A DNA stretch of 64,000 bases from Candidatus Woesebacteria bacterium (GTDB taxonomy: Bacteria; Patescibacteriota; Microgenomatia; UBA1400; PJMF01): contig JASFHL010000005.1 of NCBI GenBank assembly GCA_050123235.1, positions 30,695-94,694 on the forward strand, in the 5' to 3' direction. A program made the translations under genes and the position numbers. The notes below the pieces were generated by a model. The model searched no databases and had not been told where the DNA came from. It saw only the letters and a list, made by a program, of their open reading frames with translations. Shown here piece after piece: positions 3,333-45,148 of this stretch; within the stretch, counting starts at the first letter, position 1; every line of letters begins with the position of its first letter.

Positions 3333-5474
3333 TTGTCTATGTCAAATTTTAAATCTGCCAATAAACAAGTTCCACTCGATAGAGTTCGTAATATTGGGAT
3401 CATTGCCCATATTGATGCTGGTAAAACCACCACCACTGAGCGTATCCTTTTTTACACTGGTCGTAATTACAAGATCGGTGAAGTTCACGAAGGTGCAGCT
3501 ACCATGGATTGGATGGAACAAGAACAAGAAAGAGGAATCACTATTGTTTCTGCTGCCACTACTGCTTTTTGGAAACCATATTTTGATAGCCACTTAGCCA
3601 AAGAAGATTATCGTTTCAATATTATTGATACTCCAGGACACGTTGATTTTACCGCTGAGGTAGAGCGTTCACTCAGAGTCTTGGATGGTGGTATTACAGT
3701 ACTGGATGCTTCGGAAGGGGTACAATCTCAAAGCGAAACTGTCTGGCGTCAAGCAGATAAATACAATGTGCCACGGATTTGTTTTGTCAATAAAATGGAT
3801 AAACTGGGTGCTGATTTTATGGACACGGTCAAAGATATTAGAGATAAATTTGGAGTTAAGCCAGCAGTCATGGTTTTACCAATGGGGGCTGAAAACCAGT
3901 TTAAGGGAGTGATTCTTTTACTAGATAGAAAAGCTTTGTTTTGGAAAGACAGTGCTGCTGATACAGAGCCAGAAGTTAAAGAAATTCCAGAGGAATATAA
4001 ACAAGAAGTAGAAAAATTAAGAGCGGAGCTGATGGAAGCTATTGCGGAAACAGATGATGGCTTGATGGAAAAGTTTCTTAATGAAGAAGAAATGGAATTA
4101 AATGAGTTGAAAGCGGCTTTGAGAAAAGCAGTTATCAACTACCAATTAGTGCCTGTTTTTGCTGGTAGTTCTCTTAAGAACACTGGTGTTCAAGTTTTAC
4201 TAGATGCTGTAATTGAGTATTTGCCTTCTCCAATGGATATTGAAGCCATCAAAGGTGAAGATCCAAAAACCAATGAAGAAGTGGAAAGAAAATTAATTCC
4301 AGAAGAAAAACTCTGTGGTTTAGCTTTTAAAATTCAAACAGATCCCCATGTAGGTAAATTGACCTATTTTAGAATTTATTCAGGTGTCTTAAAAGCAGGC
4401 AGCTATATTTACAATAGTGTCCAAGGCAAAAAAGAAAGAGTCGGGCGTTTGTTATTGATGCATGCTAATCAAAGAGAAGAGATTGCTGAAGCCAGAGCAG
4501 GTGAGATTGTAGCCATTATTGGTCTAAAAAACACTAAAACAGGCGATACTTTATGTGATGAACAGCACCAGATTGTACTTGAGGGGATTACTTTTGCAGA
4601 ACCAGTGATTTCTTTGGCTATTGAACCAAAAACCAAATCTGATCAAGAAAAAATGGGTTTAGCTCTAAATAAACTCAGTGAGGAAGATCCAACCTTTTCT
4701 ATTAAAGTTGATCAAGAAACAGGCCAAACAATCATTGGTGGCATGGGTGAGCTACACCTGGAGATTATTGTTGACAGAATGAAGCGAGAATTCAAAGTCG
4801 ATGCCAATGTGGGTAAACCTCAAGTCGCCTATCGAGAAACTATCACTCAAGCTGCTCAAGGTGAAGGTAAATACATCAAACAAAGTGGTGGTCGCGGTCA
4901 GTATGGTCATGTTCTACTTAGACTTGAACCACAAGATCGTGGAACTGGCTATGAGTTTGTTAATGAAATCAAAGGAGCTGCTGTTCCTAGAGAATATATT
5001 GAGCCAACTAATAAAGGTGTTCAAGAATCTCTCGAGCGAGGTTTTTTGGCTGGTTATCCAATGTCAGATCTTAAAGTCACTTTATATGATGGTTCTTTTC
5101 ACGAAGTTGATTCTAGTGAACTAGCTTTTAAAATGGCTGGCTCTTTGGGTATGAAAGATGCAGTTGCTAAAGCTGGCATGGTGTTGTTAGAGCCAATTAT
5201 GAAGGTCGAAGTCACTACTCCTGAAGAATTCATGGGTGATGTGATTGGTGATATTAGTGGTCGTAGGGCTCAAATTCAAGGAACAGTTAATCGAGGCAAT
5301 GTGGTTATTATTACCGCTCTAGTGCCTTTGGCAGAAATGCAAGGTTATGTCACAATTCTGCGAAGCATGACCCAAGGTCGTGCCACTAGTGTGATGTTAC
5401 CAAGTCATTATGATGAAGTGCCAAAACAAATTTCTGATAAGATTGTTGAAGAAAGAAAGGGGTTTAGAAGATAA
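3333..5474 (+). CDS. fusA: elongation factor G
   Basis: 713 aa; G1 motif [21 protein letters not shown]; full EF-G domain order; follows rpsG. Confidence 0.95.
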
Positions 5475-6925: not shown

Positions 6926-7075
6926 TTAGCTAACTATAAGTTTATCTGTAATAAATGTTAGTGAGTAAACTTTATTTTGCAGTAGCTCTAATACTATACA
7001 GCCAGGAGAAAATATATTATAATCACGCCTTGTCTTTATTTAAAATGAAATTAAGAAAACAATTAACAAATTAAT

Positions 7076-7491: not shown

Positions 7492-8322
7492 ATGATGTTA
7501 AATACAATTTTTGCTACCAAGGTTGGTATGACTCAAGCCTGGTCAAGCTCAGGCAAGAGATTAGCAGTGACCAAATTAAAAGTTGGCACTAATGCTGTAG
7601 TGGGGCAAAAAAATGCTTGGGCTGTCAATAAACCAGTTGATAGCTTTAAAAAGCAAGAGGCTCTTATTTGCGAAATCGCATACGGAAAGAAAAAACTCAA
7701 AAATTTAAGCAAGCCACTCAAAGAAAAAATAAAAAAGAGTGGCTTTTCTGAAGGTTTTAGGCAAATTAGAGGGCTTAAGTTTTTCCCAAGAGAAGCACAA
7801 GAATCTGAACTCAAAGTTGGTGATGCTATCAAGTTAGACCAAGTTTTGGAACCTGGTGATGTGGTTAAAGTGCAAGGTAGGTCAAAAGGAAGAGGTTTTG
7901 CTGGTGTGATTAAGCGTCACGGTTTTGCTGGTGGTCCTAGAACTCACGGTCAGTCTGACAGAGAAAGAGCCCCTGGTTCAATTGGTTCTGGTACTGATCC
8001 CGGTCGTGTTTGGAAAGGCAAAAAGATGCCTGGGCATTACGGGGCTAAAAATAAGACAGTTTCTAATTTAGTAGTTTTGTATATTGATCCAGAAAAGCAG
8101 GAGCTTTGGTTGAGTGGCCCTGTTCCTGGTCATAATAATTCTATTGTCAGAGTAGAAAAACTTGGGTTTAAGAAAAAATTGGAATTAAATTTAGCAGCAT
8201 CTGGTTTGGGGTCAGCTAAAGAAGCTAAACAAAAAACTCCAAGCTCAGCAAAAAATGAAAAAAGCAAATCAGCAGCTAAATCAGGAAAAAAAGATCAAAA
8301 AAATACTAAAGAAACAAAATGA
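7492..8322 (+). CDS. rplC: 50S ribosomal protein L3 (with Lys-rich C-terminal extension)
   Basis: 276 aa; KVGMTQ start motif and conserved L3 core; ~60-aa K/S/A-rich tail. Confidence 0.92.
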   Translation: MMLNTIFATKVGMTQAWSSSGKRLAVTKLKVGTNAVVGQKNAWAVNKPVDSFKKQEALICEIAYGKKKLKNLSKPLKEKIKKSGFSEGFRQIRGLKFFPREAQESELKVGDAIKLDQVLEPGDVVKVQGRSKGRGFAGVIKRHGFAGGPRTHGQSDRERAPGSIGSGTDPGRVWKGKKMPGHYGAKNKTVSNLVVLYIDPEKQELWLSGPVPGHNNSIVRVEKLGFKKKLELNLAASGLGSAKEAKQKTPSSAKNEKSKSAAKSGKKDQKNTKETK

Positions 8323-11716: not shown

Positions 11717-12123
11717 TGTTACAGCCTAGAAAACGAAAATACCGTAAGGAATTTAGAGGTAAGAATAGAGGAAAATCTTTGAAGGCTAATACTGTTGCTT
11801 TTGGAGAATATGGCCTTAAAGCTACTACTGGTGGCTGGATTACAGCCAGACAGATTGAAGCAGCTAGAAAGAAAATTACTTTTGCTACCAAAAGGTTAGG
11901 TAAATATTGGATTAGAGTTTTCCCTCATAAGCCAATCACTAGAAAACCTGTAGGAGTAAAAATGGGTTCTGGTAAAGGAGCAATTGAAGCCTATGTGGCA
12001 GTGGTTAAACCAGGAACAATTTTATTTGAGCTAGGTGGTGTCACAGAAGAAATTGCCAGATCAGCCTTTAACAAGGCAGCACACAAGCTTTCTGTGAGAA
12101 CCACTTTTATTGCCAAAGCTTAA
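11716..12123 (+). CDS. rplP: 50S ribosomal protein L16
   Basis: 135 aa; [13 protein letters not shown] start; overlaps the rpsC stop. Confidence 0.95.
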
Positions 12124-15681: not shown

Positions 15682-16404
15682 TTGAAAAAAAATATGAAAC
15701 AACAACGCATGCGTGAAGCAAAAGAATTCGAAGAAAAAGTGATTCAGATAAACCGAGTTTCAAAGAAAACTAAGGGTGGAAATAGTATTGGTTTTTCTGT
15801 TTTGATGGTGGTAGGTGATAAAAAAGGCAGAGTTGGTGTCGGATTAGGAAAGGCAACAGATGTAGTTTCTTCAATGAAAAAGGGCATTAAAAAGGCTAAG
15901 AAAAAAATGATTACTGTTCCTTTACAAGGTGCTACTATTCCTTTTGCTATTACTGTAAAAAAAGGAGCTGGTAAGGTGATGTTAAAGCCGTCCCCTATTG
16001 GTTCTGGAGTAATTGCAGGTGGTCCAGTAAGAGCAGTGGTTGAGGCTGCAGGTATCAAGGATATTTCAGCTAAAATTTTAGGAAGCGAGAATCAAGCTTC
16101 TAGTGTTTATGCCACTTTTGAAGCCTTGAAACAAATTAGAAATATTGTTGAAGTCCGGGGTATTAAGTTGAAATCTATAGATGAAGTTAAGCAAGAAGAA
16201 AAAGATAAAGTAGAAAAAATTGAGAAAAGAGCTAAACAAGTTGCTGATAAACAAAAGCCAAAGGCTGCAGCAAAAAAGCCAGTTAGCAAAAAGAGTATTG
16301 TAAAAAAAGCTTCAGCCAAGAAAACCGTGGCAAAAAAAACAGTCAAAGCATCAAAGAAAGTAGCTAGCAAATCCAAGACTGCCAAACAAAGTAAGAAAAA
16401 ATAA
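15682..16404 (+). CDS. rpsE: 30S ribosomal protein S5 (with ~75-aa Lys-rich C-terminal extension)
   Basis: 240 aa; S5 core (GGNSIGFSVLMVVGDKKGRVGVGLGKA); long K/A-rich tail. rplO follows directly, with no L30 gene between. Confidence 0.93.
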   Translation: MKKNMKQQRMREAKEFEEKVIQINRVSKKTKGGNSIGFSVLMVVGDKKGRVGVGLGKATDVVSSMKKGIKKAKKKMITVPLQGATIPFAITVKKGAGKVMLKPSPIGSGVIAGGPVRAVVEAAGIKDISAKILGSENQASSVYATFEALKQIRNIVEVRGIKLKSIDEVKQEEKDKVEKIEKRAKQVADKQKPKAAAKKPVSKKSIVKKASAKKTVAKKTVKASKKVASKSKTAKQSKKK

Positions 16405-16407
16405 TTT

Positions 16408-16848
16408 ATGTCATTATTAAATAAGCTTGTAAAAACTACCAACAGAAAAAAGAAACGACTTGGCCGTGGTTATGGTTCTGGTAAAGGTGGCCACACAGCC
16501 AGTAAAGGTGTTAAAGGGCAGAAGTCAAGAGTTGGTGCTAAAGTACCACTGTGGTTTGAAGGTGGGCAATTGCCTTTAGTTAAAAGAGTGCCAATGATGA
16601 GAGGTAAAGCTAGGTTTAAGGTAGTCAGACCTAATGCGGAAATAAGTTTAGACTTATTAGATAACTTAGACATTGATGTAATAACTTTAGAGGCTTTGAA
16701 GTTGAAAAAAGTAATTAGTAAAAGATTTAAAAAAGCAAAAATTATTAATACAGGCAAACTTAATAGGAAACTAACAATCAAAGGCATTAAAGTTAGTAAA
16801 GGAGCCAGAGTAGTTATTGAAAAATTAGGAGGGAAAATAGAAGCTTAA
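16408..16848 (+). CDS. rplO: 50S ribosomal protein L15
   Basis: 146 aa; KRLGRGYGSGKGGHT motif. Confidence 0.95.
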   Translation: MSLLNKLVKTTNRKKKRLGRGYGSGKGGHTASKGVKGQKSRVGAKVPLWFEGGQLPLVKRVPMMRGKARFKVVRPNAEISLDLLDNLDIDVITLEALKLKKVISKRFKKAKIINTGKLNRKLTIKGIKVSKGARVVIEKLGGKIEA

Positions 16849-16880
16849 TATTTTGAGTCCAAGATTGATAGGCAAAATCA

Positions 16881-18167
16881 GTGTTAAAAAAAATAACAAA
16901 TAAAGTCCGCGAGATTTTTTCCAACAAAAAGCTAAAAAATAAGCTGATCTTCACTGCAAGCATTTTTTTTATTTTTAGATTATTGGCTCACATTCCTCTT
17001 CCAGCAGTCGATATAGAAAGACTTTCTTTAATGTTTGCCCAGAGTCAATTTTTAAGTTTACTCAATATTTTTTCTGGTGGCACACTTGCTCGTTTTTCAG
17101 TGGTTGCAGTTGGAATTAGCCCTTATATTAGTGCTTCTATTATTATGCAATTGGCTGCCATGGTTTTTCCTAAACTAAAAGAAATGCAAAAAGAAGGTGA
17201 GGCTGGTCGAGAAAAAGTTAATCAATACACTAGGTTTTTAACTGTCCCTCTAGCTGTTTTTCAAAGTATTTCAGTGATTGCCCTCTTGAATTCCCAATCT
17301 TTATTACAAACCAGAGACTTATTTGCTTTGAGTACCATGATTGTAACTTTGGTAGCCGGAGCAATGATCTTGATGTGGTTGGGAGAATTGATTTCTATTC
17401 ATGGTATAGGCAATGGCATTTCTATGGTTATTTTCGCTGGTATAGCTAGCCAATTACCAACTATGTTTGGTCAAACATTGGCCCTAGCCAATAGTGAGCA
17501 AATAGTTGAAATGCTTACCTTTGTAATTTTATTTGCGCTGGTAATAGCTTTGGTTGTTTTCATGAATGAAGCTGTGCGCAAGGTAGTAATTCAATATTCC
17601 AAAAGAAGCCGAGGTAGCCGAGTTTTTGCTGGCCATACTACTCACTTACCAATCAGAGTCAATGTAGCAGGTGTGATGCCTATCATCTTTGCTTTATCCA
17701 TTATGATGGTGCCGTCATTCTTGGCAAGAATGTTTATTGCTTCTGGTAAAGAGTCTCTTGTTTATTGGGGTCAAAAGCTTTCTGTCTGGTTTAGTCAAAC
17801 TTCTTTTGTTTATATGTTAATTTACTTTTTGGTTGTTTTCTCTTTCACTTTTTTTTCAGCTTTGATATTTTTTAATGCCAAGGATTTAAGTGAAGAGTTA
17901 AAAAAGGGCGGTGCTTTTATTCCTGGTATTAGACCAGGAGGTCCAACTAAAAAATTTCTAGAGTATGTGGTGGTGAGGATTACTTTATTGGGTGCTATGT
18001 TTTTGGGTTTCATTGCTTTGTTGCCTTCTTTAGCCCAGAATTTTACAGGTGTTCAATCTTTAGCCATTGGTGGAACCAGTGTTTTGATTGTTGTTTCAGT
18101 AATTCTAGAAACAGCTAAACAAGTAGAAAGTATGTTAGTAGGACAGAATTATGAAAAATATAGTTAA
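16881..18167 (+). CDS. secY: preprotein translocase subunit SecY
   Basis: 428 aa; GTG start; 10 predicted TM helices; conserved SecY segments (GISPYISASIIMQL, LGELISIHGIGNGISMVIFAGI). Confidence 0.95.
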   Translation: MLKKITNKVREIFSNKKLKNKLIFTASIFFIFRLLAHIPLPAVDIERLSLMFAQSQFLSLLNIFSGGTLARFSVVAVGISPYISASIIMQLAAMVFPKLKEMQKEGEAGREKVNQYTRFLTVPLAVFQSISVIALLNSQSLLQTRDLFALSTMIVTLVAGAMILMWLGELISIHGIGNGISMVIFAGIASQLPTMFGQTLALANSEQIVEMLTFVILFALVIALVVFMNEAVRKVVIQYSKRSRGSRVFAGHTTHLPIRVNVAGVMPIIFALSIMMVPSFLARMFIASGKESLVYWGQKLSVWFSQTSFVYMLIYFLVVFSFTFFSALIFFNAKDLSEELKKGGAFIPGIRPGGPTKKFLEYVVVRITLLGAMFLGFIALLPSLAQNFTGVQSLAIGGTSVLIVVSVILETAKQVESMLVGQNYEKYS

Positions 18168-18179
18168 AAAGGAGACGCT

Positions 18180-18761
18180 ATGAAAATAGTCTTGATTGGC
18201 ATTCAAGGAGCTGGCAAGTCTACTCAAGGTAACATGTTAGCTGAAGAATTAGGCATTCCTTATCTTTCTTCTGGTCATATTTTTAGACAGATGGCTAAGA
18301 GAAAAAGTAAATTGGGCCGTTGGCTTAAAGAAACTCTAAATGCAGGCGCTCTTGTACCTGATGATGTGACTGTTGAAGCTGTGATGAAGTATCTTCAAAA
18401 AAAAGAATATAAATATGGTTTCATCATTGACGGCTTTCCTAGAACTGTTAAGCAAGCAGAAGCCTTTTCTGATGGTGAAGAGAAAGTAATTTTCATTGAT
18501 GTATCAGATAAAGAGGCTTTGTGGCGTATTTCTGGAAGAATTAGTAACAGGGAAGATGAAACACTACAGGCTATCAGAAAAAGAATTCAGCTTTTCCATG
18601 ATCAAACCTCAGCAGTGATTGATTATTATCAAAATCGAGGAAAGTTGATCAGAGTTAATGGCGAACAAGAAGTAGAAGCTGTTTTTAAAGATATTCTTAA
18701 ACATTTAAAAAAAAGCCTAGAGTTTAAAAAATTAAGAGAAAATCAGAAGAACGGTAGTTAA
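18180..18761 (+). CDS. adk: adenylate kinase (short form, no zinc lid)
   Basis: 193 aa; P-loop GIQGAGKSTQ; LID region without a Cys4 motif. Confidence 0.9.
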   Translation: MKIVLIGIQGAGKSTQGNMLAEELGIPYLSSGHIFRQMAKRKSKLGRWLKETLNAGALVPDDVTVEAVMKYLQKKEYKYGFIIDGFPRTVKQAEAFSDGEEKVIFIDVSDKEALWRISGRISNREDETLQAIRKRIQLFHDQTSAVIDYYQNRGKLIRVNGEQEVEAVFKDILKHLKKSLEFKKLRENQKNGS

Positions 18762-18800
18762 AGTTTAAATCTATTTAAGAACCTGAATGGAGTTTTTTAA

Positions 18801-18957
18801 CATTTACTACAGATAAATTTTTGAGCGTTGAAGTGAGGTCTAGTCAGGCTTGATTTAGCAGCAGATTTGCTACCGAGCTTCACCGAGTGAGCCTTGTATC
18901 TTAAAAATAAACAAAGTGTCGCAGCGAGCGACTTAAAAATTTATCTGTAGTAAATGT
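18801..18957. repeat. copy A of a ~155-bp intergenic element with perfect 17-bp terminal inverted repeats (ATTTACTACAGATAAAT ... ATTTATCTGTAGTAAAT)
   Basis: Seen directly in the sequence. A second copy at 28612-28766 shares the termini and the internal blocks GAGCGTTRAAGTGAGGTCT, CTACCGAGCTTYACCGAGTGAGCYTTGTAT and AGCGARCGACT. Confidence 0.8.
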
Positions 18958-19037
18958 GATTAAATCTTATTCAGCGATACTTTAAAGTCATGGGTTTACC
19001 TGAGTACTTATATCTGGTATAATCTGGAAGTCATTTT

Positions 19038-19376
19038 ATGGGAAAGGTTCAGGAGCACAAACGAGCTGCAAAGGCTAAAAGACAAGTGGATACCACTCAG
19101 CAAAAGTCTAGCAGATCTGATCGTCTCGAGATAGCCGGAGTGGTTGAGGACTGCTTACCTAACACGATGTTTAAGATTAGAGTGACAGAGTCACCAGTGG
19201 AGCAACTTAAGGACAAGATTTTGTTAGCTACCTTAACTGGCAGGATGCGTCTCTATAGAATTAGAGTCCTACCAGGAGATTATGTAAAAGGTTATGTTTC
19301 TAAGTATGACTTAACAAAGTGTAAAATCACTTTTAGATCTACCAAAGAAAAGCGACCTATAAAATCAACTAGCTGA
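19038..19376 (+). CDS. infA: translation initiation factor IF-1 with ~40-aa N-terminal extension
   Basis: 112 aa; the C-terminal 70 aa form an S1-like IF-1 core (LPNTMFKIRV...GRMRLYRIRVLPGDYVKGYVSKYDLTKCKITFR); the N-terminal basic extension is not typical. Confidence 0.8.
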   Translation: MGKVQEHKRAAKAKRQVDTTQQKSSRSDRLEIAGVVEDCLPNTMFKIRVTESPVEQLKDKILLATLTGRMRLYRIRVLPGDYVKGYVSKYDLTKCKITFRSTKEKRPIKSTS

Positions 19377-23532: not shown

Positions 23533-23550
23533 AATTTATCTGTAGTAAAT
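23533..23550. repeat. solo half-site of the inverted-repeat element (AATTTATCTGTAGTAAAT), then AAGCTAAG-T9-TAGC
   Basis: Matches the right terminal repeat of the 18801-18957 element. It lies in the convergent gap between rpsI (+) and an ABC permease (-). Confidence 0.6.
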
Positions 23551-25180: not shown

Positions 25181-26160
25181 TGTTTCTTTTGGGCAAAAAC
25201 TTCCCTGATAATAGCTTCAATTGGAGCTTCTTCGATATTGAGATCATGAATTGATAATTCATTAAGCATTTTAGAAGCCATTGCAGTAGCTTTTTCTCTT
25301 GGCACAAGGATGGTGATTTTAGGAAATTCAAAGTCTTTTATTTGCCCAAATTTAGCTAGTTTTTCTTTTGGAGTTTCTCGACTAAGTAGCAAAGAGATAA
25401 TCTTGTTTCTAGCAAATTTGTGAATAATATCTTGCAATTTCCCATCAAACATTTTTTTCCCTTGATCTATAATAATTGCTCTAGGGCATAATTCTTTGAC
25501 ATCATCCATGTAGTGACTGGTTAAGATCACTGTAGTTTCAAATTCGCGATTATAATCTTTGATAAAATCACGCAAGGTTTTTTGCATTAATACGTCCAAA
25601 CCAATGCTAGGTTCATCCAAGAACAAAACTTTGGGGCTGTGCAGTAGAGCAGCGATCAGCTCGCATTTCATGCGCTGCCCAAGTGATAATTTTCTAACTT
25701 GGATATTAAGAAGATCAGCAACATCAAGTATTTCTACCAATTTTTTTAGTGTTTTCTTGTATTTTTGATCGCTGATTTCATAGATAGCTTTATTGAGTTC
25801 AAAGCTCTCAATAGCAGGCAAATCCCACCAAAGTTGGTTTTTTTGTCCCATGATTAAAGCAAATTGCTTTTGAAATTCGGTTTTTCTATCCCAAGGATTG
25901 AAACCTAAGACTCGTACTTGCCCTTCAGTTGGGTAAAGCAAACCAGAAAGAATTTTTAAAGTTGTAGTTTTTCCTGCTCCATTTTTACCAATAAAACCAA
26001 CAATTTCTCCGCTATCAATTGTGAAAGAGATATCATCAACCGCTTTGACAATCTCGTATTCTCTATGCCAAAGAGATTTAATTGATCCAGTCAGGCCGGC
26101 TTCTTTACGGTAAACCTTAAAATATTTTTTTAGTTGATCAACTTGAATAACGGGTGGCAT
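25177..26160 (-). CDS. ABC transporter ATP-binding protein (exporter type) with ~100-aa C-terminal extension
   Basis: Walker A GKNGAGKTTT, signature LSLGQRMK, Walker B LFLDEPSIGLD, H-loop TSHYM. Confidence 0.9.
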   Translation of the reverse strand: MPPVIQVDQLKKYFKVYRKEAGLTGSIKSLWHREYEIVKAVDDISFTIDSGEIVGFIGKNGAGKTTTLKILSGLLYPTEGQVRVLGFNPWDRKTEFQKQFALIMGQKNQLWWDLPAIESFELNKAIYEISDQKYKKTLKKLVEILDVADLLNIQVRKLSLGQRMKCELIAALLHSPKVLFLDEPSIGLDVLMQKTLRDFIKDYNREFETTVILTSHYMDDVKELCPRAIIIDQGKKMFDGKLQDIIHKFARNKIISLLLSRETPKEKLAKFGQIKDFEFPKITILVPREKATAMASKMLNELSIHDLNIEEAPIEAIIREVFAQKKQ

Positions 26161-26173
26161 AAGGATAAATTAT

Positions 26174-26192
26174 AATTCATCTATAGTAAATT
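26174..26192. repeat. solo half-site variant (AATTCATCTATAGTAAATT) of the inverted-repeat element
   Basis: Sequence match to the element terminus; lies between the HU gene and the ABC operon (both on the - strand). Confidence 0.5.
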
Positions 26193-26265
26193 GTAGATAC
26201 CTTATTATTTACTTACTATTCTTTAAAATGAGACCCTTGAACTGAATTTATTTGGAGTGCTATCT

Positions 26266-28421: not shown

Positions 28422-28611
28422 TAATCATAATTTATAGTGACTTGTTTACAAAAACTGTAACTTTGAGCAAAGTGGGTTATAATACTTGGAGTTAAAGACA
28501 AAATAGAGATATATTAGAGATGTTTTTTAAGATTTTGAGCGGACTGTTAAGGATAAATATATTGTCACTGATCATTTTGTTAGGATAAAGTTTTGAAGTG
28601 AATAGTTTTGA

Positions 28612-28766
28612 ATTTACTATAGATAAATATTAGAGCGTTAAAGTGAGGTCTGGCTAAATTTATATTAGCGATGGATATACTACCGAGCTTTACCGAGTGA
28701 GCTTTGTATTTTAAAAGGAGCTATCAGATAGTAGCGAACGACTCTGATATTTATCTATAGTAAATT
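28612..28766. repeat. copy B of the ~155-bp inverted-repeat element (ATTTACTATAGATAAAT ... ATTTATCTATAGTAAAT)
   Basis: Perfect 17-bp TIR. Relative to copy A it carries a compensatory C->T / G->A pair that keeps the inversion perfect, and the internal blocks are conserved. It sits in the divergent region 60 bp upstream of tRNA-Ser. Confidence 0.8.
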
Positions 28767-28824
28767 TGATACTGTTTTCTAGTTTTACAAAATAGTAAGT
28801 GAAGAATATATTTAACATTAATCA

Positions 28825-28912
28825 GGAAGCGTCGCATAGTGGCCAATTGCACAGGATTGCTAATCCTGAGCCCTTATGGGCTTCGTGGGTTCGAATCCCA
28901 CCGCTTCCGCCA
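28825..28912 (+). tRNA. tRNA-Ser (anticodon GCU), CCA encoded
   Basis: Hand-folded cloverleaf: acceptor GGAAGCG/CGCTTCC; D-loop with AGTGG; anticodon stem CAGGA/TCCTG with loop TTGCTAA (U33, GCT anticodon, A37); long variable arm GCCC-TTAT-GGGC; T-arm GTGGG-TTCGAAT-CCCAC; discriminator G + CCA. Confidence 0.9.
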
Positions 28913-30209: not shown

Positions 30210-30500
30210 TTGCTACTTAATTTACTACAGAAAGCTGAAATCCCATTTGGACTTTTTGGATATATTCTTAAGAAGAAATCCTTGGAGGTAATTAATGAGG
30301 TGCAAGATAAAGTTTTCCATCAATGGTGGGAGCCACCCATAGTCTTACCACATCTTATGTGCGCTCTGGAAGATACTATTGGCACATCAGTTTTAGAAGG
30401 TCAAGGTCGAATCAGTAAAGATAAGATTCAATGGTGCTTAGTTTATGGAGTCAAAGGCAGTGAGGAAAAAGAAAAAGCACAACAGTACAGCAGCAACTAA
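30210..30500 (+). CDS. hypothetical protein (96 aa)
   Basis: Intact ORF between the Fic gene and the peptidase gene; no recognisable motifs. Confidence 0.3.
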   Translation: MLLNLLQKAEIPFGLFGYILKKKSLEVINEVQDKVFHQWWEPPIVLPHLMCALEDTIGTSVLEGQGRISKDKIQWCLVYGVKGSEEKEKAQQYSSN

Positions 30501-39522: not shown

Positions 39523-42500
39523 ATGAAATTTTTTAAAAAACCCCTCGTTTTTATTTTTTCTTGTTTTCTTTTTCTTTTAGTTAGCTTATTAGCAAATAAA
39601 AAAATTCATTTTTTTTCTAGCTCAGTTCCTGCTTTTGCTCAAAGCACTGACTCTCAAATTTTGATTAGTGCCAAAGAAGGAGATCAAGGTTTCAAAGCTG
39701 TGATTGCTCAATCTTCTTTGGAGGAGCCAGCTGTTTGGGTTGGAGATCATAAGCTTAATGGTGAGCTTGAATTGAGAGTTTATAAAGCAACGCTTACTTC
39801 CTTACTTGAATATCTAGCCCATGACGAAGATAACAATCAAGTTAATCCTGATGTTAGAGCTTCAGAATTAGAGCAGCTGGTAACTATCAATGAGCCGATT
39901 GCTTTTGCTCAAAAAAAGATTCTTCTTCCTTTGGAAGAAACTGGAGTCTGGTATTTGGAAGCTAGATTTAAAGGAGAAACTTGGGTAGGTAAGACTTTTT
40001 TGATTCGTTCTAAAACAGGAGTTTTAGTTAAAGAAGGAAATAATGAGCTTATCTTTTGGGGTCAAGATTATGCTAGTAAAAGAAGTATCAATCAAGGAGA
40101 AGTCACAGTTTATAATTTGGAAAATTCTATTCAAACTCTTGCTCAGAGTAATTTTAATCAAGATGGCGTTGCTAAAACAGGGATTAGCACTGATGCTGAT
40201 ATAGCTATTTTTAAAAATGGTAATGACATATCCCTGACGCCGATTAATCTACGTTTCTTAGAAGGCAACTGGGGTTACAATTTTTTTACTCCCAAAGAAA
40301 GAAAAGCCAAGTTTTTCACTTTTACTGATAGACCGCTTTATAAACCAGGAGACGTGATTAAATTTAAATCAATTATTAGAGACGATGATGATGCGGTCTA
40401 TTCTATTCCCAAAGGTTTAGCTCAAGTGAAGATTTATTCAGATGATTATGACAATCCTGTTTTTGTAGACAATTTTCCTATTACTGATGAAGGCAGCATC
40501 GCTGGTGAAGTAACACTGCCGGCTGATGCAAGTACAGATTATTATTATCTAGAGGTAAACTTAGATGCAACAGAAGAAGCTGACTATTATAATTATAATT
40601 TACGTGATTATGTTTATTTTCAGGTGGAGCATTATCGAAAACCAGAATATTCAATAGACATTGAAGCAGAAGAATCAGAGTTAATAGCTGGTGATAGTTC
40701 CTCTTTTACTATCACAGGTAGTTATTTCTTTGGAGAACCAATTAGCAAGCAAACTGTGAAGTATAAAATTTATTCAGCTCCTTATTGGTCTTCTGATTAT
40801 TACGGGCAAAGAAAAATTGAATTAAGTGACAATTATCGCTATGGATATTACTGGGGTAAAGAAGTGACTAGTGGTACGGCTGTGTTTAACAGTCAGGGTG
40901 AAGCAGTGATTGATTTTGAAGCTCTACTACCTGAAATAGATGCAACAGCTTCTTCTTATACCTCAAATACGTCCAAGAAAAGCCAAATTTATGCAATTGA
41001 AGCAGAGTTTGATGACGGTTCAGGAAATTCAGTTTTTGCTAGAAAAAATATTTTAGTGCGTAATGGTGAGTTTGGCATTTTTAAGAAAAACTATCAAAGT
41101 ACTGCGCTACTTAATCAAGAAATAGATGTTCCAATCAAACTAGTAGCTTATCAAGATGATGTTCAAATAAGTAAAATTGATTTAACTGTCAAGCCTGTGC
41201 ATCAAACTTGGGTGCGTGAAGAAGTAGAAGGTCAGAAATATCCTCGTTTTCGTGAAGAAAAAAAAGAGTTAAAAGAATTTTCTATAGTTACAGATAAACA
41301 AGGTGAGGCCACTATTAAGTTCACTCCTGAAAAGCTTGGTTCTTATGTGATGACAGTAGTGGCAGAAGATTCCAGGGGCAACCAAATCTCTAAAGATTTT
41401 TATTTTTGGATTACTGATGAAAAACAAGCTGTTTTCAGTGGTCAATATGAACAACATCTTGATATCCAAATTGATAAAGAAGAATATCAATTTCAAGACA
41501 CAGTCAAGGCAATTATTTCTTCTTCTGAGCCAGATAGGGATCTTTTCTTATCATTTGAAAGAGATGGGGTGAGGCGTTTTCAAACAGTTAAACTTCATGC
41601 TCAGACAGCCACTGTTGAACTGCCTTTGCAACAGACAGATATGCCGAATATTTTTTTATCAGTAGCAAGTTTTACCAAAGGACGCTTAGATAGTAACAAT
41701 CGAGTTGTTCATGTATCCCCTGATCCTCAAAAATTAACTGTTGAAATTAAAGCTAATAAAGAACGATATGTGCCTGCAGAAACAGTGACGCTTGATATTT
41801 TTACTAAAGATTTTGCTGGTAATGCTATCCCTGCTGAGACTGCAGTTTGGGTAGTTGATAAAGCAATCTTTGAATTGACTAATCAAGGAACAGCTGATAT
41901 TTTTAATCGCTTTTGGAGTGAACGTTATTTAAATACAGCAAAGTCTCACTCTTTAGAAGGCATTTTTATGATGAATATGGGAGGTGGCGGTGGCTGTTTT
42001 ACAGGAGATACTCAGATTTCTATTGCTAACGGAAAGGACAAGGCAATCAAAGATATTAAAATTGGCGATCAAGTTTTAACAAAGAAGAATCCCAATGATA
42101 AGCCAAAAGCAACTAAAGTAACTAAAGTTTTTGAGCATCAAGTTGCTGGCTATTTCTTAGTCAATGCTTCGCTTAAAGTTACCCCAGAGCACATCATGTG
42201 GATCAATGATCGCTGGCAAACTGCCTCTCATTTAAAAATAGGCGATAAGCTTAGGGACAGTCAGAATAATGAAATAGAAGTAGTTTCACTGGAATGGCAA
42301 GATGGCTTATTTAAGGTTTTTAACTTAGAAGTAGAAAATGCTCATACTTTTTTTGCCAATGATATCTGGGTACATAATCAGAAAGGTGATGGTGGTGGTA
42401 GAAAAATTTTTGAAGATACAGCTTATTGGAATCCTTTTGTTAAAACTGACGCCAATGGTCATGCTCAAATTACTTTTAAATTGCCAGACAATTTAACTAC

Positions 42501-44670
42501 CTGGGTGATTAGTTCAGTCGGAGCTACCCAAGATACTAAAGTCGGTCAAAGTACTCAAGAGATTCTTGTTTCCAAGAGTGTTGTTTTAAGGCCAATTTTA
42601 CCTAATCTTTTACTTATAGAAGACGAAATCGTAATCCCTGCTATTCTTCACAACTTCACTGATGAAGATCATGAGTTTAAAGTAAACTTAGAGACTGATA
42701 GTGCAGAGATTTTAGATCAAAATAAACAAACAGTGATAGTAAAATCAGGCGAGTTTGCCCAAGTAGCTTGGCATTTAAAAGCAAGTCAAGCAAATGAAGT
42801 AGCAGCTTTTACTTTTTCAGCCCAAGCAAGTGATAATCAGGAGCTATCAGATATTATCACTCGTAAGATTCCAGTAAGAAAGTTTGGTTTTTGGGAGAAA
42901 ACAGGTGAAAATTCAGAAGGTTCTGGTAGCTTTACTCTTAGCTTAAATCCAGATAGTGATAGAGAAAAATCTAAATTCACGCTTTTGCTCAGTCCAAGTC
43001 TGATTTCCAGCTTACCTTCTGCTATGAAATATTTAGTAGATTATCCTTACGGTTGCACAGAACAAACTACCAGCCGTTTTGTGCCAGCTGTGATTGCTAA
43101 GGAAAACCCGCAGCTTTTTGCTGAGGCTCTGAAAGATAAGGATCTTGATGCCATTATTAATAAATCTATTAGCAAATTAGCTGATCATCAACAAAGTGAT
43201 GGCGGTTGGTCTTGGTGGTCGAATGGCGAGAGTGATTATTTTGTCACAGCCTATGTTTTAGAGTATTTACTGAGGGCAGAAAAATTAGGATTTGATGTAA
43301 ACTATTTCATTAAAAATCAGGCAAAGCGTTTTCTTTCTACATTGAGACAAGAAGATCGGGAAAAAGCTGCTAATCCTTCAGCTGAAGAGTTGAGAGAGTC
43401 TATTGAGGAATTGATTATTAGATCCTATGCTCTTTCCCTCTTAGGAGAGAGATTGGAAAGCTTTCACGGTTTTGAAGGTTTAAGTCCGGATATTTTAGCT
43501 CTAGCAGTAATGAGTAACTTTAATAATGGTAATACTGATCCTCAAACTAATGGTCTGGATTATCTTTTATCTTTGGCCAAAGAACAAGGAGATAGTTTAT
43601 ATTGGCCAGCTGGTAAAAGTAGATACTTTGGTTCTCAAGCTGCCTCTACAGCTTTAGCTATTAAAGCACTTGCTAAGGCGAATTATCAATTGCCAAAGGC
43701 TGGTCAAGCAGTTAAGTTTTTATTAAAGAATCGTAAGAATCGTTATTGGGCAAACACCTTTGCTACTGCACAAATTGTGCAAGCTGCAGTTGATTTTGCT
43801 CATAGTAGCGAGCAAACTAATCCTGATTTTAGTTTCACAGTTTCTTTAGACAACCAGCAACTTCATCAAGCCCTAGTCAATGATTCGATGCAAGAATTAG
43901 AAGCAGTGGAGATTAAAGGTACAGATTTAGCAGCAGCCACTGCTCAGTTAGCTGTTGAAAGATCAGCTGGCCCAGGTCAATTGTATTTCACCCTCTTGAC
44001 CGAAGAATTCCGTACCAATAAAAACGCTGACGCAGTCAGTCATGGCATCAATATCAAGCGTAAATATGTCAATACCAAGGGTGAAGATTATTCAATTGGC
44101 GTAGGAGATATTATTAATGTTGAGCTCACAGTAGGTGGCCTAAATAGTACAGACTATTATGCAGTGATTGAAGATCAATTACCAGCCGGTATGCTGCCAA
44201 TTAATAAGAAGCTTAAGAGTGAACAATTTACTCAAGAAACAGACAATTACTATAGCACAGCAGGGCAAGAGGTGACTGAAAATGGGATGATTATTTCTTT
44301 ATATAGAATCAGTCCAAAAGAAAAAATTTATACTTATCAAGCTCGAGTAGTTAATCAAGGCAAATTCATTGCTCCGCCAGCTAAAGTTTTCTTGATGTAT
44401 TCTCCTGAAATCTATGCTAGGACTACAACTGAAACAGTAGAAATTATGGCAGAGTCTAAAGCTAGCGGGTTCAAGCGAATCCAGGAATTGATTGGCGCTG
44501 ATAGACAGCCAATAGTGCTAATTCTTCTTATTTTAATTATTCTGCTTAGCCTATCGTTAATTGGATTTTTGATTTTGAAGAAAAAAAGACCGGCTACTTT
44601 TAAAAAATTGAAGAGTAAAATTTTAGCTTTGAAAAAAGTTCGAAAGAAAGATAATTCAGAAAAGAATTAA
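39523..44670 (+). CDS. giant alpha-2-macroglobulin/thioester-containing-protein-like surface protein with an embedded Hint (mini-intein/BIL-type) domain
   Basis: 1715 aa; N-terminal signal peptide; C-terminal TM helix + basic tail; thioester-type motif DYPYGCTEQTTS (compare PYGCGEQ of A2M); long beta-rich N-terminal region consistent with MG domains; complete Hint domain at aa 825-952. Confidence 0.8.
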   Translation: MKFFKKPLVFIFSCFLFLLVSLLANKKIHFFSSSVPAFAQSTDSQILISAKEGDQGFKAVIAQSSLEEPAVWVGDHKLNGELELRVYKATLTSLLEYLAHDEDNNQVNPDVRASELEQLVTINEPIAFAQKKILLPLEETGVWYLEARFKGETWVGKTFLIRSKTGVLVKEGNNELIFWGQDYASKRSINQGEVTVYNLENSIQTLAQSNFNQDGVAKTGISTDADIAIFKNGNDISLTPINLRFLEGNWGYNFFTPKERKAKFFTFTDRPLYKPGDVIKFKSIIRDDDDAVYSIPKGLAQVKIYSDDYDNPVFVDNFPITDEGSIAGEVTLPADASTDYYYLEVNLDATEEADYYNYNLRDYVYFQVEHYRKPEYSIDIEAEESELIAGDSSSFTITGSYFFGEPISKQTVKYKIYSAPYWSSDYYGQRKIELSDNYRYGYYWGKEVTSGTAVFNSQGEAVIDFEALLPEIDATASSYTSNTSKKSQIYAIEAEFDDGSGNSVFARKNILVRNGEFGIFKKNYQSTALLNQEIDVPIKLVAYQDDVQISKIDLTVKPVHQTWVREEVEGQKYPRFREEKKELKEFSIVTDKQGEATIKFTPEKLGSYVMTVVAEDSRGNQISKDFYFWITDEKQAVFSGQYEQHLDIQIDKEEYQFQDTVKAIISSSEPDRDLFLSFERDGVRRFQTVKLHAQTATVELPLQQTDMPNIFLSVASFTKGRLDSNNRVVHVSPDPQKLTVEIKANKERYVPAETVTLDIFTKDFAGNAIPAETAVWVVDKAIFELTNQGTADIFNRFWSERYLNTAKSHSLEGIFMMNMGGGGGCFTGDTQISIANGKDKAIKDIKIGDQVLTKKNPNDKPKATKVTKVFEHQVAGYFLVNASLKVTPEHIMWINDRWQTASHLKIGDKLRDSQNNEIEVVSLEWQDGLFKVFNLEVENAHTFFANDIWVHNQKGDGGGRKIFEDTAYWNPFVKTDANGHAQITFKLPDNLTTWVISSVGATQDTKVGQSTQEILVSKSVVLRPILPNLLLIEDEIVIPAILHNFTDEDHEFKVNLETDSAEILDQNKQTVIVKSGEFAQVAWHLKASQANEVAAFTFSAQASDNQELSDIITRKIPVRKFGFWEKTGENSEGSGSFTLSLNPDSDREKSKFTLLLSPSLISSLPSAMKYLVDYPYGCTEQTTSRFVPAVIAKENPQLFAEALKDKDLDAIINKSISKLADHQQSDGGWSWWSNGESDYFVTAYVLEYLLRAEKLGFDVNYFIKNQAKRFLSTLRQEDREKAANPSAEELRESIEELIIRSYALSLLGERLESFHGFEGLSPDILALAVMSNFNNGNTDPQTNGLDYLLSLAKEQGDSLYWPAGKSRYFGSQAASTALAIKALAKANYQLPKAGQAVKFLLKNRKNRYWANTFATAQIVQAAVDFAHSSEQTNPDFSFTVSLDNQQLHQALVNDSMQELEAVEIKGTDLAAATAQLAVERSAGPGQLYFTLLTEEFRTNKNADAVSHGINIKRKYVNTKGEDYSIGVGDIINVELTVGGLNSTDYYAVIEDQLPAGMLPINKKLKSEQFTQETDNYYSTAGQEVTENGMIISLYRISPKEKIYTYQARVVNQGKFIAPPAKVFLMYSPEIYARTTTETVEIMAESKASGFKRIQELIGADRQPIVLILLILIILLSLSLIGFLILKKKRPATFKKLKSKILALKKVRKKDNSEKN
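41995..42378 (+). other. Hint / mini-intein-like (bacterial-intein-like) domain inside the A2M-like ORF
   Basis: Starts with Cys in block A (GGGGG|CFTGDTQISIANG); block B TPEH; blocks F/G VFNLEVENAHTFFANDIWVHN; ends His-Asn. The +1 residue is Gln and both junctions are poly-Gly (MMNMGGGGG / QKGDGGG). Confidence 0.85.
43051..43065 (+). other. putative thioester site (GCTEQ) of the A2M-like protein
   Basis: DYPYGCTEQTT resembles the CxEQ thioester motif (PYGCGEQNM in eukaryotic A2M/C3). Confidence 0.6.
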
Positions 44671-44706: not shown

Positions 44707-44725
44707 AATTTTATTGTAGTAAATG
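44707..44725. repeat. degenerate solo half-site (AATTTTATTGTAGTAAATG) of the inverted-repeat element
   Basis: Partial match to the element terminus, in the convergent gap after the A2M-like gene. Confidence 0.35.
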
Positions 44726-44755
44726 TAAGTGACTAAATCCTATTTCGCAATAATT

Positions 44756-45148
44756 CTACTTTTTTTCGCAAATCTCTTGTTGAAATTTTTTGTTATATCT
44801 ATCAAACAATTTTTGAAATTCCTGATGAAGCTCTTCCATGACTGTATCTTCCACATTTTCTATGTTGAGTAATTTAGTTCTAGCCCCTTTGACTGCTCTA
44901 ATTAACTCATCTAGTTTGAGATGAATGGCTCTACTATCCCTGTTTTGTGTATTTTGAATTAAAAATACCATTAAAAAAGTAATGATAGTGGTAGTAGTAT
45001 TAATTACCAATTGCCATGTGTCAGAAAAATTAAAAATCGGCCCAGTGATAAGCCAAAGTGCAATAATACTTATGGCTATAAAAAACGCCCAAACTGTCCC
45101 TACAGTGTGAGCAATCTTGTTTGCTAGTTTTCTAAAAATATTGTGCAT
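44756..45148 (-). CDS. low-affinity iron permease-family (Fet4-like, PF04120-type) small membrane protein
   Basis: 130 aa; GTVWAF...SDTWQLVINT.TTIITFLMVFLIQNTQNRD...KLDELIRA motif block characteristic of this family. Confidence 0.55.
   Translation of the reverse strand: MHNIFRKLANKIAHTVGTVWAFFIAISIIALWLITGPIFNFSDTWQLVINTTTTIITFLMVFLIQNTQNRDSRAIHLKLDELIRAVKGARTKLLNIENVEDTVMEELHQEFQKLFDRYNKKFQQEICEKK

Follow-up and report, generated by a model that had tools for sequence, protein, structure and literature searches.

The window analysed here, the whole stretch of 64,000 nucleotides (64 kb) taken from contig JASFHL010000005.1, carries a non-coding element of about 155-190 bp. The element is present in two full copies, copy A between adk and infA and copy B upstream of a tRNA-Ser gene, and its terminal arm recurs alone at five further places. 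Inverted arms of about 17-45 nt surround a core of 106-120 nt, the length of which is fixed, and the sequence of the element ends is ACATTTACTACAGATAAAT. On balance, the element is best understood as a lineage-specific, non-coding, non-autonomous interspersed palindromic repeat that resembles the REPINs and the miniature inverted-repeat transposable elements (MITEs). Most likely, it represents a new family within the known class of small mobile palindromic repeats that have no transposase of their own. It is assigned to neither family but filed as REPIN/MITE-like, because its arm is a poor palindrome, its interior is non-palindromic and no RAYT or insertion sequence (IS) is known for it.

The two full copies

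Both full copies are found where the original prediction, a reading of the same DNA that preceded this analysis, had placed them. The core of copy A spans positions 18802-18955 of the plus strand. Its left arm, the 17-mer ATTTACTACAGATAAAT at 18802-18818, is a minus-strand match to the right-arm pattern, its right arm is ATTTATCTGTAGTAAAT at 18939-18955, and both are free of mismatches. With the extended, imperfect inverted repeat the copy occupies 18783-18974. The core of copy B lies at 28612-28765 of the same strand and extends with its inverted repeat to 28601-28776; the pattern search with the 17-mer located its left arm, ATTTACTATAGATAAAT, at 28612-28628 and its right arm, ATTTATCTATAGTAAAT, at 28749-28765. 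The 17-mers are separated by 120 nt in both copies. When aligned, the copies are identical at 114 of 154 positions (74%) without any insertion or deletion, the differences being 27 transitions and 13 transversions. The arms are better kept than the interior, with 32 of 34 identical positions against 82 of 120 (an interior divergence of 32%).

The terminal inverted repeat, first described as perfect over 17 bp, is real but longer. It is perfect over 23 bp in copy A (18800-18822 and 18935-18957) and comprises 25 bp with one mismatch (96%) in copy B. It reaches about 30 pairs inward. Outward, it can be followed over 43 nt with 81% complementarity in copy A (18783-18825 and 18932-18974) and over 35 nt with 86% complementarity in copy B (28601-28635 and 28742-28776). 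The 17-mer is the most repeated word of the window among words of at least 12 nt. With up to three mismatches allowed, it occurs 10 times, 1.38 occurrences being expected, and none of 100 shuffled sequences reaches 10.

The independent Logan assembly of SRR11698124 is 100% identical to the window over copy B (contig L004) and over both halves of copy A. Therefore, the element is not an assembly artefact. Six-frame translation reveals no open frame common to both copies, and copy A contains no open reading frame (ORF) of 35 or more residues. The copies share no conserved promoter on either strand and no conserved terminator. The Rfam search that had been proposed as a check assigns no family to the element: in the whole window only the tRNA-Ser passes the gathering threshold, and the best matches of the two element regions at E<=10 have E>=0.85, far below threshold.

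Pairing of the arms and predicted folding of the interior

The constrained feature of the element is the pairing of one arm with the other, which forms a stem of 25-30 bp that can be prolonged to about 43 bp. Four positions of the 27-position stem (0, 9, 18 and 21) carry compensated double changes between the copies. One of these is the C/T-G/A change from which selection on a stem or on paired termini had originally been proposed. Only two changes in this stem are single-sided; each leads to a G.U pair on the plus strand, and A.C does not arise. The probability that each of the four positions at which the left arms differ is also one of the six at which the right arms differ is about 9e-4, complementarity not yet being required. 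Given this small chance of coincidence and the compensated changes, the two arms do not evolve independently: either selection acts on their pairing, or copying from one arm to the other takes place. The covariation goes beyond the single pair first noticed, as it comprises four stem positions and one interior pair, and the earlier proposal is supported in the form of selection or concerted evolution.

The fold of copy A has an energy of -65.8 kcal/mol (z=-6.0). Compared with shuffled sequences, the z-scores of the plus and minus strands are -6.0 and -5.6 for copy A and -7.4 and -6.5 for copy B. The RNAalifold consensus of the plus strand contains 45 pairs (-48.1 kcal/mol), seven of which, including the interior pair 33-84, are changed on both sides; that of the minus strand contains 35 pairs (-28.9 kcal/mol). 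In the plus-strand consensus the second and third of the conserved internal blocks pair with each other to form a predicted interior helix, P2, which has a tandem G.A internal loop and encloses the variable apical region. In copy A, P2 spans 18830-18881 of the plus strand and is formed by GAAGU-GA-GGU (18830-18839) and ACC-GA-GCUUC (18872-18881), corresponding to alignment columns 33-42 and 75-84. Pair 33-84, between the R of block 2 and the first Y of block 3, covaries, being G-C in copy A and A-U in copy B. The second Y of block 3 is taken up by a small hairpin, where G-C changes to G.U. All three differences within the conserved blocks are structure-neutral in the plus-strand model.

The claim that three internal blocks are conserved while the spacers between them diverge is borne out only in part. 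The blocks are present, but the clustering of the differences is weak: run-length and variance tests are not significant (p=0.15 for the variance), and the contrast of blocks and spacers was dropped as a strong signal.

An alternative that follows from the folding is that the copies belong to a structured-RNA family, be it a small RNA gene or a cis-acting module, encoded on the plus strand, so that RNA structure and not mobility would be conserved. This reading is unlikely, and the same holds for the specific model, in which a 30-bp closing stem, P1, would surround P2 and a small hairpin, P3. It would account for the plus-strand consensus with its doubly changed pairs, for the much weaker consensus of the minus strand, for the structural neutrality of the in-block differences and for single-sided stem changes that are all G.U. 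It would also account for the exact block spacing, kept without indels although 32% of the interior has diverged. Both copies are oriented like the genes downstream of them, and promoter-like sites on the plus strand are situated just upstream of copy B (28535-28591). However, covariation drawn from two sequences has almost no statistical power, and RNAalifold itself selects for covariation. The preference for the plus strand was dropped as proof of RNA, since shuffled sequences reproduce the energy gap between the strands; the gap is mostly compositional, and the z-scores of the two strands are close to each other. The G.U-only changes would also be expected from a C-to-T bias on a G-rich leading strand. 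The absence of an Rfam match and of a conserved promoter or terminator likewise speaks against a structured RNA, which would, moreover, leave the solo arms unexplained and is absent from all the relatives examined.

Solo arms

The half-sites proposed at 23534, 26175 and 44708 are confirmed, and two more solo arms, at 6940 and 30220, are added. The arm at 23534-23550 (plus strand) is an exact A-type 17-mer, located 2 nt after the rpsI stop codon in a convergent gap of 36 bp; it is absent from the homologous place in the relative L003. The pattern search also found the arm at 26175-26191 (plus strand), which is of the B type with one mismatch. Two solo arms have an outward extension. The first (6940-6990, plus strand) consists of a 17-mer with two mismatches at 6940-6956 and about 34 nt that are homologous to the flank of the right arm of copy A and to the unit at 44708. 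The second (44708-44758, plus strand) is a degenerate arm with three mismatches and a homologous extension, and lies in the convergent gap after a gene for a 1715-aa alpha-2-macroglobulin (A2M)-like protein. The degenerate arm at 30220-30236, annotated on the minus strand, has left-arm orientation on the plus strand, and its first 12 nt are exact. Against the R-degenerate pattern, the solo arms have 0, 1, 2, 3 and 3 mismatches, compared to none in all four arms of the doublets. In each case the R variant of the solo arm is that of the nearer full copy.

All seven loci, the two full copies and the five solo arms, are intergenic, and intergenic DNA makes up about 8% of the window by the ORF map. 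In local alignments the outward flanks of the right arm of copy A, of 6940 and of 44708 are homologous over about 30 nt (p 0.013 to <0.003); the extension at 44708 has p=0 against the unit at 6940 and p=0.003 against the flank of copy A. This homology argues for a repeated arm unit of about 45 nt. The arm at 6940 is preceded by a canonical terminator hairpin and is part of an insertion of about 34 nt relative to the related contigs L007 and L008, situated between the tuf terminator and the conserved promoter of the S10 operon. That promoter and the first transcribed bases (TRTACA-N17-TATAAT-CACGCCTTGTC), at 6995-7030 in the window and in the tuf-rpsJ gaps of L007 and L008, are nearly invariant across genomes which are 72-75% identical in SecY.

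The arms at 23534 and 26175 are in direct orientation and flank an ABC-transporter operon, and the possibility that they delimit a cassette was considered and rejected. A remnant of the 3' end of ABC2 is kept in L003; hence, the operon is ancestral and was lost in L003 rather than gained here, and the arms are not cassette boundaries. The ABC ATPase gene itself has a 10/12 promoter match, TCTACA-17-TATAAT, at 26160-26197 of the minus strand, and its 17-nt spacer is exactly the solo arm at 26175. The end of the -10 element is 8 nt from the ATG and a Shine-Dalgarno sequence is lacking; this points to an mRNA that may be leaderless.

The search for further copies and the related genomes

The search for further copies covered 185,579 species genomes, the JGI metagenome contigs and IMG/VR. 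The conserved block ACCGAGCTTYACCGAGTGAGC has no exact match among the genome, metagenome and viral contigs, the source contig not being among them. The pair of arms at a gap of 105-135 nt (or 95-125 nt) has none in the metagenome and viral contigs. The 17-mer alone has 102 single matches in viral contigs; none of them is accepted by the covariance model, and they are chance matches. A search for relatives through RpoA among the genome contigs returned none. The covariance model built from copies A and B recovers only these two copies across the window, the Logan flanks and three relatives, and BLAST with short words finds no hidden degenerate full copy in the window.

One observation points in the other direction. 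The Logan contigs L001, which ends at 18899, and L002, which begins at 18881, overlap by 19 nt inside copy A. Logan assemblies are made with k=31, and a repeated unitig of 41 nt would leave just such a 19-nt overlap between abutting contigs. The contig break would then mark a 41-nt block (18870-18910, plus strand) that would be shared with one or more other copies from the sample; on its left, the block begins exactly where conserved block 3 does. The break of an independent assembly at a conserved 41-nt block is suggestive, and only suggestive, of at least a third copy in the sample. The evidence is weakened by contig breaks within genes, such as those at 15825 and 54695, which the Logan assembly of this organism also contains.

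The same organism is present in JGI sample 3300042731 and in Logan SRR11698124. The named homologues of its SecY are annotated as Candidatus Pacebacteria or Patescibacteria, and the nearest non-identical SecY is only 75% identical, which argues that the host is an uncultivated, Pacebacteria-like bacterium of the candidate phyla radiation (CPR). Three relatives, L003, L007 and L008, with SecY 72-75% identical, were used for comparison. Their adk-infA gaps measure 75, 123 and 181 bp, compared to 276 bp in the window. In none of the three is the element or the motif present; each has an infA promoter in its adk-infA gap, and the covariance model matches nothing in them. The presence of the promoter without the element argues that copy A is a lineage-specific insertion between the adk stop codon and the infA promoter.

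The closest relative with available DNA, L003 (SecY 75%), has its own, unrelated family of repeats of about 120 bp, modular and in both orientations, with the palindrome CTAAATTCTCAAAGAGAATTTAG. Its copies (5206-5330, 7663-7780, 16069-16140 and 16785-16902) occupy four intergenic gaps of the same ribosomal-protein operon. That a different repeat family occupies operon gaps in L003 shows that small repeats turn over in this clade. In two relatives the secY-adk interval contains one inserted gene each, for an Asp-Al_Ex transporter (L007 11388-12524) and an Mrr restriction endonuclease (L008 11416-12312). Together with copy A, these genes indicate that the secY-adk-infA junction is probably a variable spot in an otherwise rigid operon. 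In L003 the 5' leader of infA, ATTTATAGATATAGTAAAT (11945-11972), immediately before the ATG, resembles the arm motif with a 2-nt insertion; the resemblance may be due to chance.

The element as a probable mobile repeat

In the favoured reading, the palindromic repeat would have spread, in the past or at present, by means of a transposase acting in trans that recognizes the arms, and would have landed only in intergenic DNA. The hairpin could form in single-stranded DNA during mobilization or in co-transcribed RNA. Copy A should be co-transcribed with adk, and its 30-bp stem of double-stranded RNA (dsRNA) might be an RNase III-type processing or stability site that separates the ribosomal-protein/secY/adk transcript from the infA promoter. 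The solo arms would be decayed or truncated remnants, comparable to singlets among the repetitive extragenic palindromes (REPs).

Several findings weigh against mobility. Only two full copies are seen, and scans for exact patterns in the collections of genomes, metagenomes and viruses, from which the host is absent, yield no further one. The 64-kb window encodes no transposase, RAYT or recombinase. The check for target-site duplications, which the original prediction had called for, gives a mixed answer: copy B is flanked by a direct duplication, TTGA/TTGA, but copy A, flanked by TAAC and GTGA, has none, whichever of three boundaries is assumed, and the two copies are thus inconsistent in this respect. 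No empty-site polymorphism is found, the two assemblies being identical and the relatives, with SecY at most 75% identical, being too distant for insertion points to be compared. Finally, the pairing of blocks 2 and 3, with its covarying R/Y pair and tandem G.A loop, and the exact spacing of the blocks speak against a simply neutral interior. The predicted helix and the kept spacing hint at a function beyond mobility.

Other explanations

The original prediction had left the choice between a MITE-like element, a structured small RNA gene and an operon-boundary regulatory or terminator module. A dispersed repeat of the MITE/REPIN-like kind fits best. The operon-boundary terminator is not supported: copy B lies between divergent promoters rather than at the end of an operon, the copies have no conserved terminator or promoter, and the arm at 6940 already has a terminator in front of it.

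After the structured RNA considered above, the next explanation treats the 17-21 nt arm as the putative site of a DNA-binding protein, a regulator or nucleoid protein, and the full elements as paired sites. This is quite improbable, as is its corollary, an action of the arms on the promoters of translation-related genes in their vicinity. Outward promoter-like sites occur at 18 nt (right arm of copy B, tRNA-Ser), 28 nt (left arm of copy B, LTD operon), 38 nt (6940, S10 operon) and 39 nt (right arm of copy A, infA), distances which are roughly in helical phase. The arm at 26175 coincides exactly with the spacer of the ABC-operon promoter match, and the motif is strictly intergenic. However, the phasing and the spacer coincidence were noticed post hoc, the promoter calls are consensus matches only, and the remaining five arms point towards 3' gene ends. 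In relatives without the motif, the S10 and infA promoters are conserved all the same. Selection for binding would keep the sequence of the arms rather than yield compensated changes in them, and the conserved 120-nt interior would have no explanation.

A combination of these ideas, equally doubtful, is a mobile regulatory RNA or DNA module of this CPR lineage, the 17-nt arms of which would also act alone in one of two possible ways. The module itself might be a plus-strand RNA, structured and about 160-200 nt long, in which a stem of 30-43 bp closes a conserved core with a tandem G.A loop; this is an improbable conjecture in its own right. In the first way, held with similarly little confidence, the arms would be helically phased sites upstream of the promoters of the S10 operon, infA and tRNA-Ser. 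In the second, to which we attach no more weight, they would be targets for pairing in trans; this option is raised since the tuf, rpsI and A2M-like transcripts have, in their 3' ends, solo sites to which the left arm is exactly complementary. If the mobile module were true, a dispersed repeat would wire a small regulon in a genome with very few classical regulators.

An invertible DNA segment, in which a recombinase would flip the 120-bp interior to switch neighbouring genes, is very improbable: inverted repeats of 23-25 bp around a short segment, their presence at several loci, the position of copy B between divergent units (one with a gene for a surface-type LTD protein) and possible homogenization of the arms by recombination within the repeats would suit it, but the segment has no conserved promoter on either strand, the window encodes no recombinase, the orientation of copy B is the same in both assemblies, the Logan break in copy A lies in mid-interior and not at the arms, and infA and tRNA-Ser are implausible phase-variable targets.

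A connection of the element, as template or variable repeat of a diversity-generating retroelement (DGR) or as retron non-coding RNA, with the reverse transcriptase (RT) gene nearby was rejected; the differences between the copies are not adenine-specific, both copies are intergenic, and they lie 35-45 kb from the RT. None of the attC, dif, parS, DnaA-box, IHF and hammerhead consensuses seems to fit the sequence either.

Comparison with known repeats

The proposed mobile repeat has its closest counterparts among REPINs, in which conserved inverted 16-mers enclose a less conserved spacer of fixed length, compensatory changes are common, degenerate singlets occur and the location is extragenic (PMC3116915). 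REP doublets (REPIN/REP-BIME) form hairpins and are mobilized by RAYT/TnpA-REP Y1 transposases (PMC3116915, PMC8266576). The element shares with them the inverted, conserved short sequences, the less conserved spacer of fixed length and the compensatory changes that keep the hairpin. As with REPINs, the conserved word is locally the most abundant one, its singlets are degenerate and extragenic, target-site duplications are not consistent and the location is strictly intergenic. The spacer, however, is 120 nt long, compared to about 40-80 nt in REPINs, is not palindromic and has its own predicted branched helices and conserved blocks. The 17-mer is AT-rich, unlike the GC-rich hairpins of classical REPs. 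It is self-palindromic only in its outer 5 bp of A/T (ATTTA-N7-TAAAT) with a centre that is not self-complementary, and so lacks the short imperfect palindrome of a REP unit, the hairpin that the Y1 transposase recognizes. No RAYT gene, which in genomes with REPINs usually has REPs on its flanks, is seen in the 64-kb window.

Terminal inverted repeats around a short core (generally <200-400 bp) and the lack of coding capacity, both found here, are among the marks of MITEs; target-site duplications of constant length, several dispersed copies, an autonomous IS with the same ends and presence or absence that varies between close genomes are others. Bacterial MITEs include the Correia elements (CREE, NEMIS) of Neisseria, of about 104-157 bp, and ERIC (PMC3184786). 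Like these, the element measures about 155 bp, has terminal inverted repeats of at least 20 bp around a non-coding core, folds into a long hairpin, lies near promoters and within operons and has copy-specific subtypes. Correia and ERIC elements have TA duplications on their flanks, whereas the element is flanked by TTGA/TTGA at copy B and by no duplication at copy A. It also differs in having no known parent IS with the same ends, no sequence similarity and a CPR host.

The third comparison is with bcr1 of the Bacillus cereus group, a transcribed repeat of about 155 bp with 5-bp flanking direct repeats, many copies and strain-variable locations (PMC3184786). Size, interspersed intergenic occurrence, branched predicted RNA and pairing kept by compensatory changes are common to both; bcr1, too, is regarded as a mobile sequence of a special class that has no transposase of its own (PMC3184786). 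There is no sequence similarity to bcr1, and the element is known here from two full copies.

Full-text literature searches brought up no account of MITE- or REP-like repeats in CPR/Patescibacteria. The element is most likely a new family of a known kind, in a phylum for which these searches found none described. The genomes of CPR/Patescibacteria are very small and streamlined. The ribosomal-protein/secY/adk/infA superoperon, the genome's most conserved gene cluster, harbours this family and, in L003, the unrelated one. Confirmation across the whole genome would indicate fast turnover of small non-autonomous repeats even in reduced genomes. Such repeats would then serve as markers by which strains are tracked, and would be a cause of breaks in metagenome-assembled genomes of CPR. 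They would also offer a clean case in which to ask whether conservation of a hairpin reflects transposition chemistry or RNA function, and long dsRNA stems between co-transcribed essential genes could affect operon processing.

Genes around the element

The window is AT-rich, with about 35% GC, and its GC skew is positive throughout. It contains the ribosomal operons rpoC-S12-S7-fusA-tuf, S10, spc and alpha, without a gene for L30, and other genes follow. The genes on either side of the full copies are those named in the original prediction, adk and infA for copy A and tRNA-Ser(GCT) for copy B. Copy A is located in the gap of 276 bp between adk (18180-18761) and infA (19038-19376). The putative infA promoter, TTTACC-17-TATAAT with a TG (18995-19023, plus strand), lies outside the element, 39 nt past its right arm.

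Copy B is located in a gap of 553 bp between the minus-strand LTD-VanZ-HU operon (start codon 28421) and tRNA-Ser(GCT) (28825-28912). A promoter-like site for the tRNA, TTTACA-17-TATATT (28784-28812, plus strand), is found 18 nt past its right arm, and the inverted counterpart of this site (28556-28583, minus strand) faces the LTD operon, so that the copy stands between two divergent promoters. The divergent promoter regions (28547-28580 and 28787-28821) are inverted copies of each other, spacers included, and the interval 28543-28825 folds as a whole into a single hairpin of 283 nt (-84.6 kcal/mol). This giant inverted repeat of 275 bp is not counted as the element; its outer part coincides with the two divergent promoters, and may partly reflect the common promoter consensus.

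In this clade InfA is 108-112 residues long, compared to the usual length of about 72, owing to a basic N-terminal extension of about 40 residues (MGKVQEHKRAAKAKRQ...). The long infA genes are at 19038-19376 (plus strand) in the window, 11973-12299 in L003, 13395-13727 in L007 and 13308-13637 in L008. The interval between S12 and S7 (2299-2826) contains a 72-aa ORF without a family match, followed by 309 bp of lysine/arginine-rich short frames, and a Logan contig also ends within it, at about 2674. The 1715-aa A2M-like protein (39523-44670, plus strand) has a Hint/intein-type domain (residues ~823-952) just before its A2M domain. About 1.3-4.1 kb past the right end of the window, contig L005 (10612-13376) has a non-coding stretch of 710 bp and a 66-aa ORF. 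These are followed by a helix-turn-helix protein (99 aa), an overlapping reverse transcriptase (RVT_1, 297 aa) and a 200-aa ORF (162 aa in the JGI gene call); the region looks like a retron, a DGR or a defence-type retroelement.

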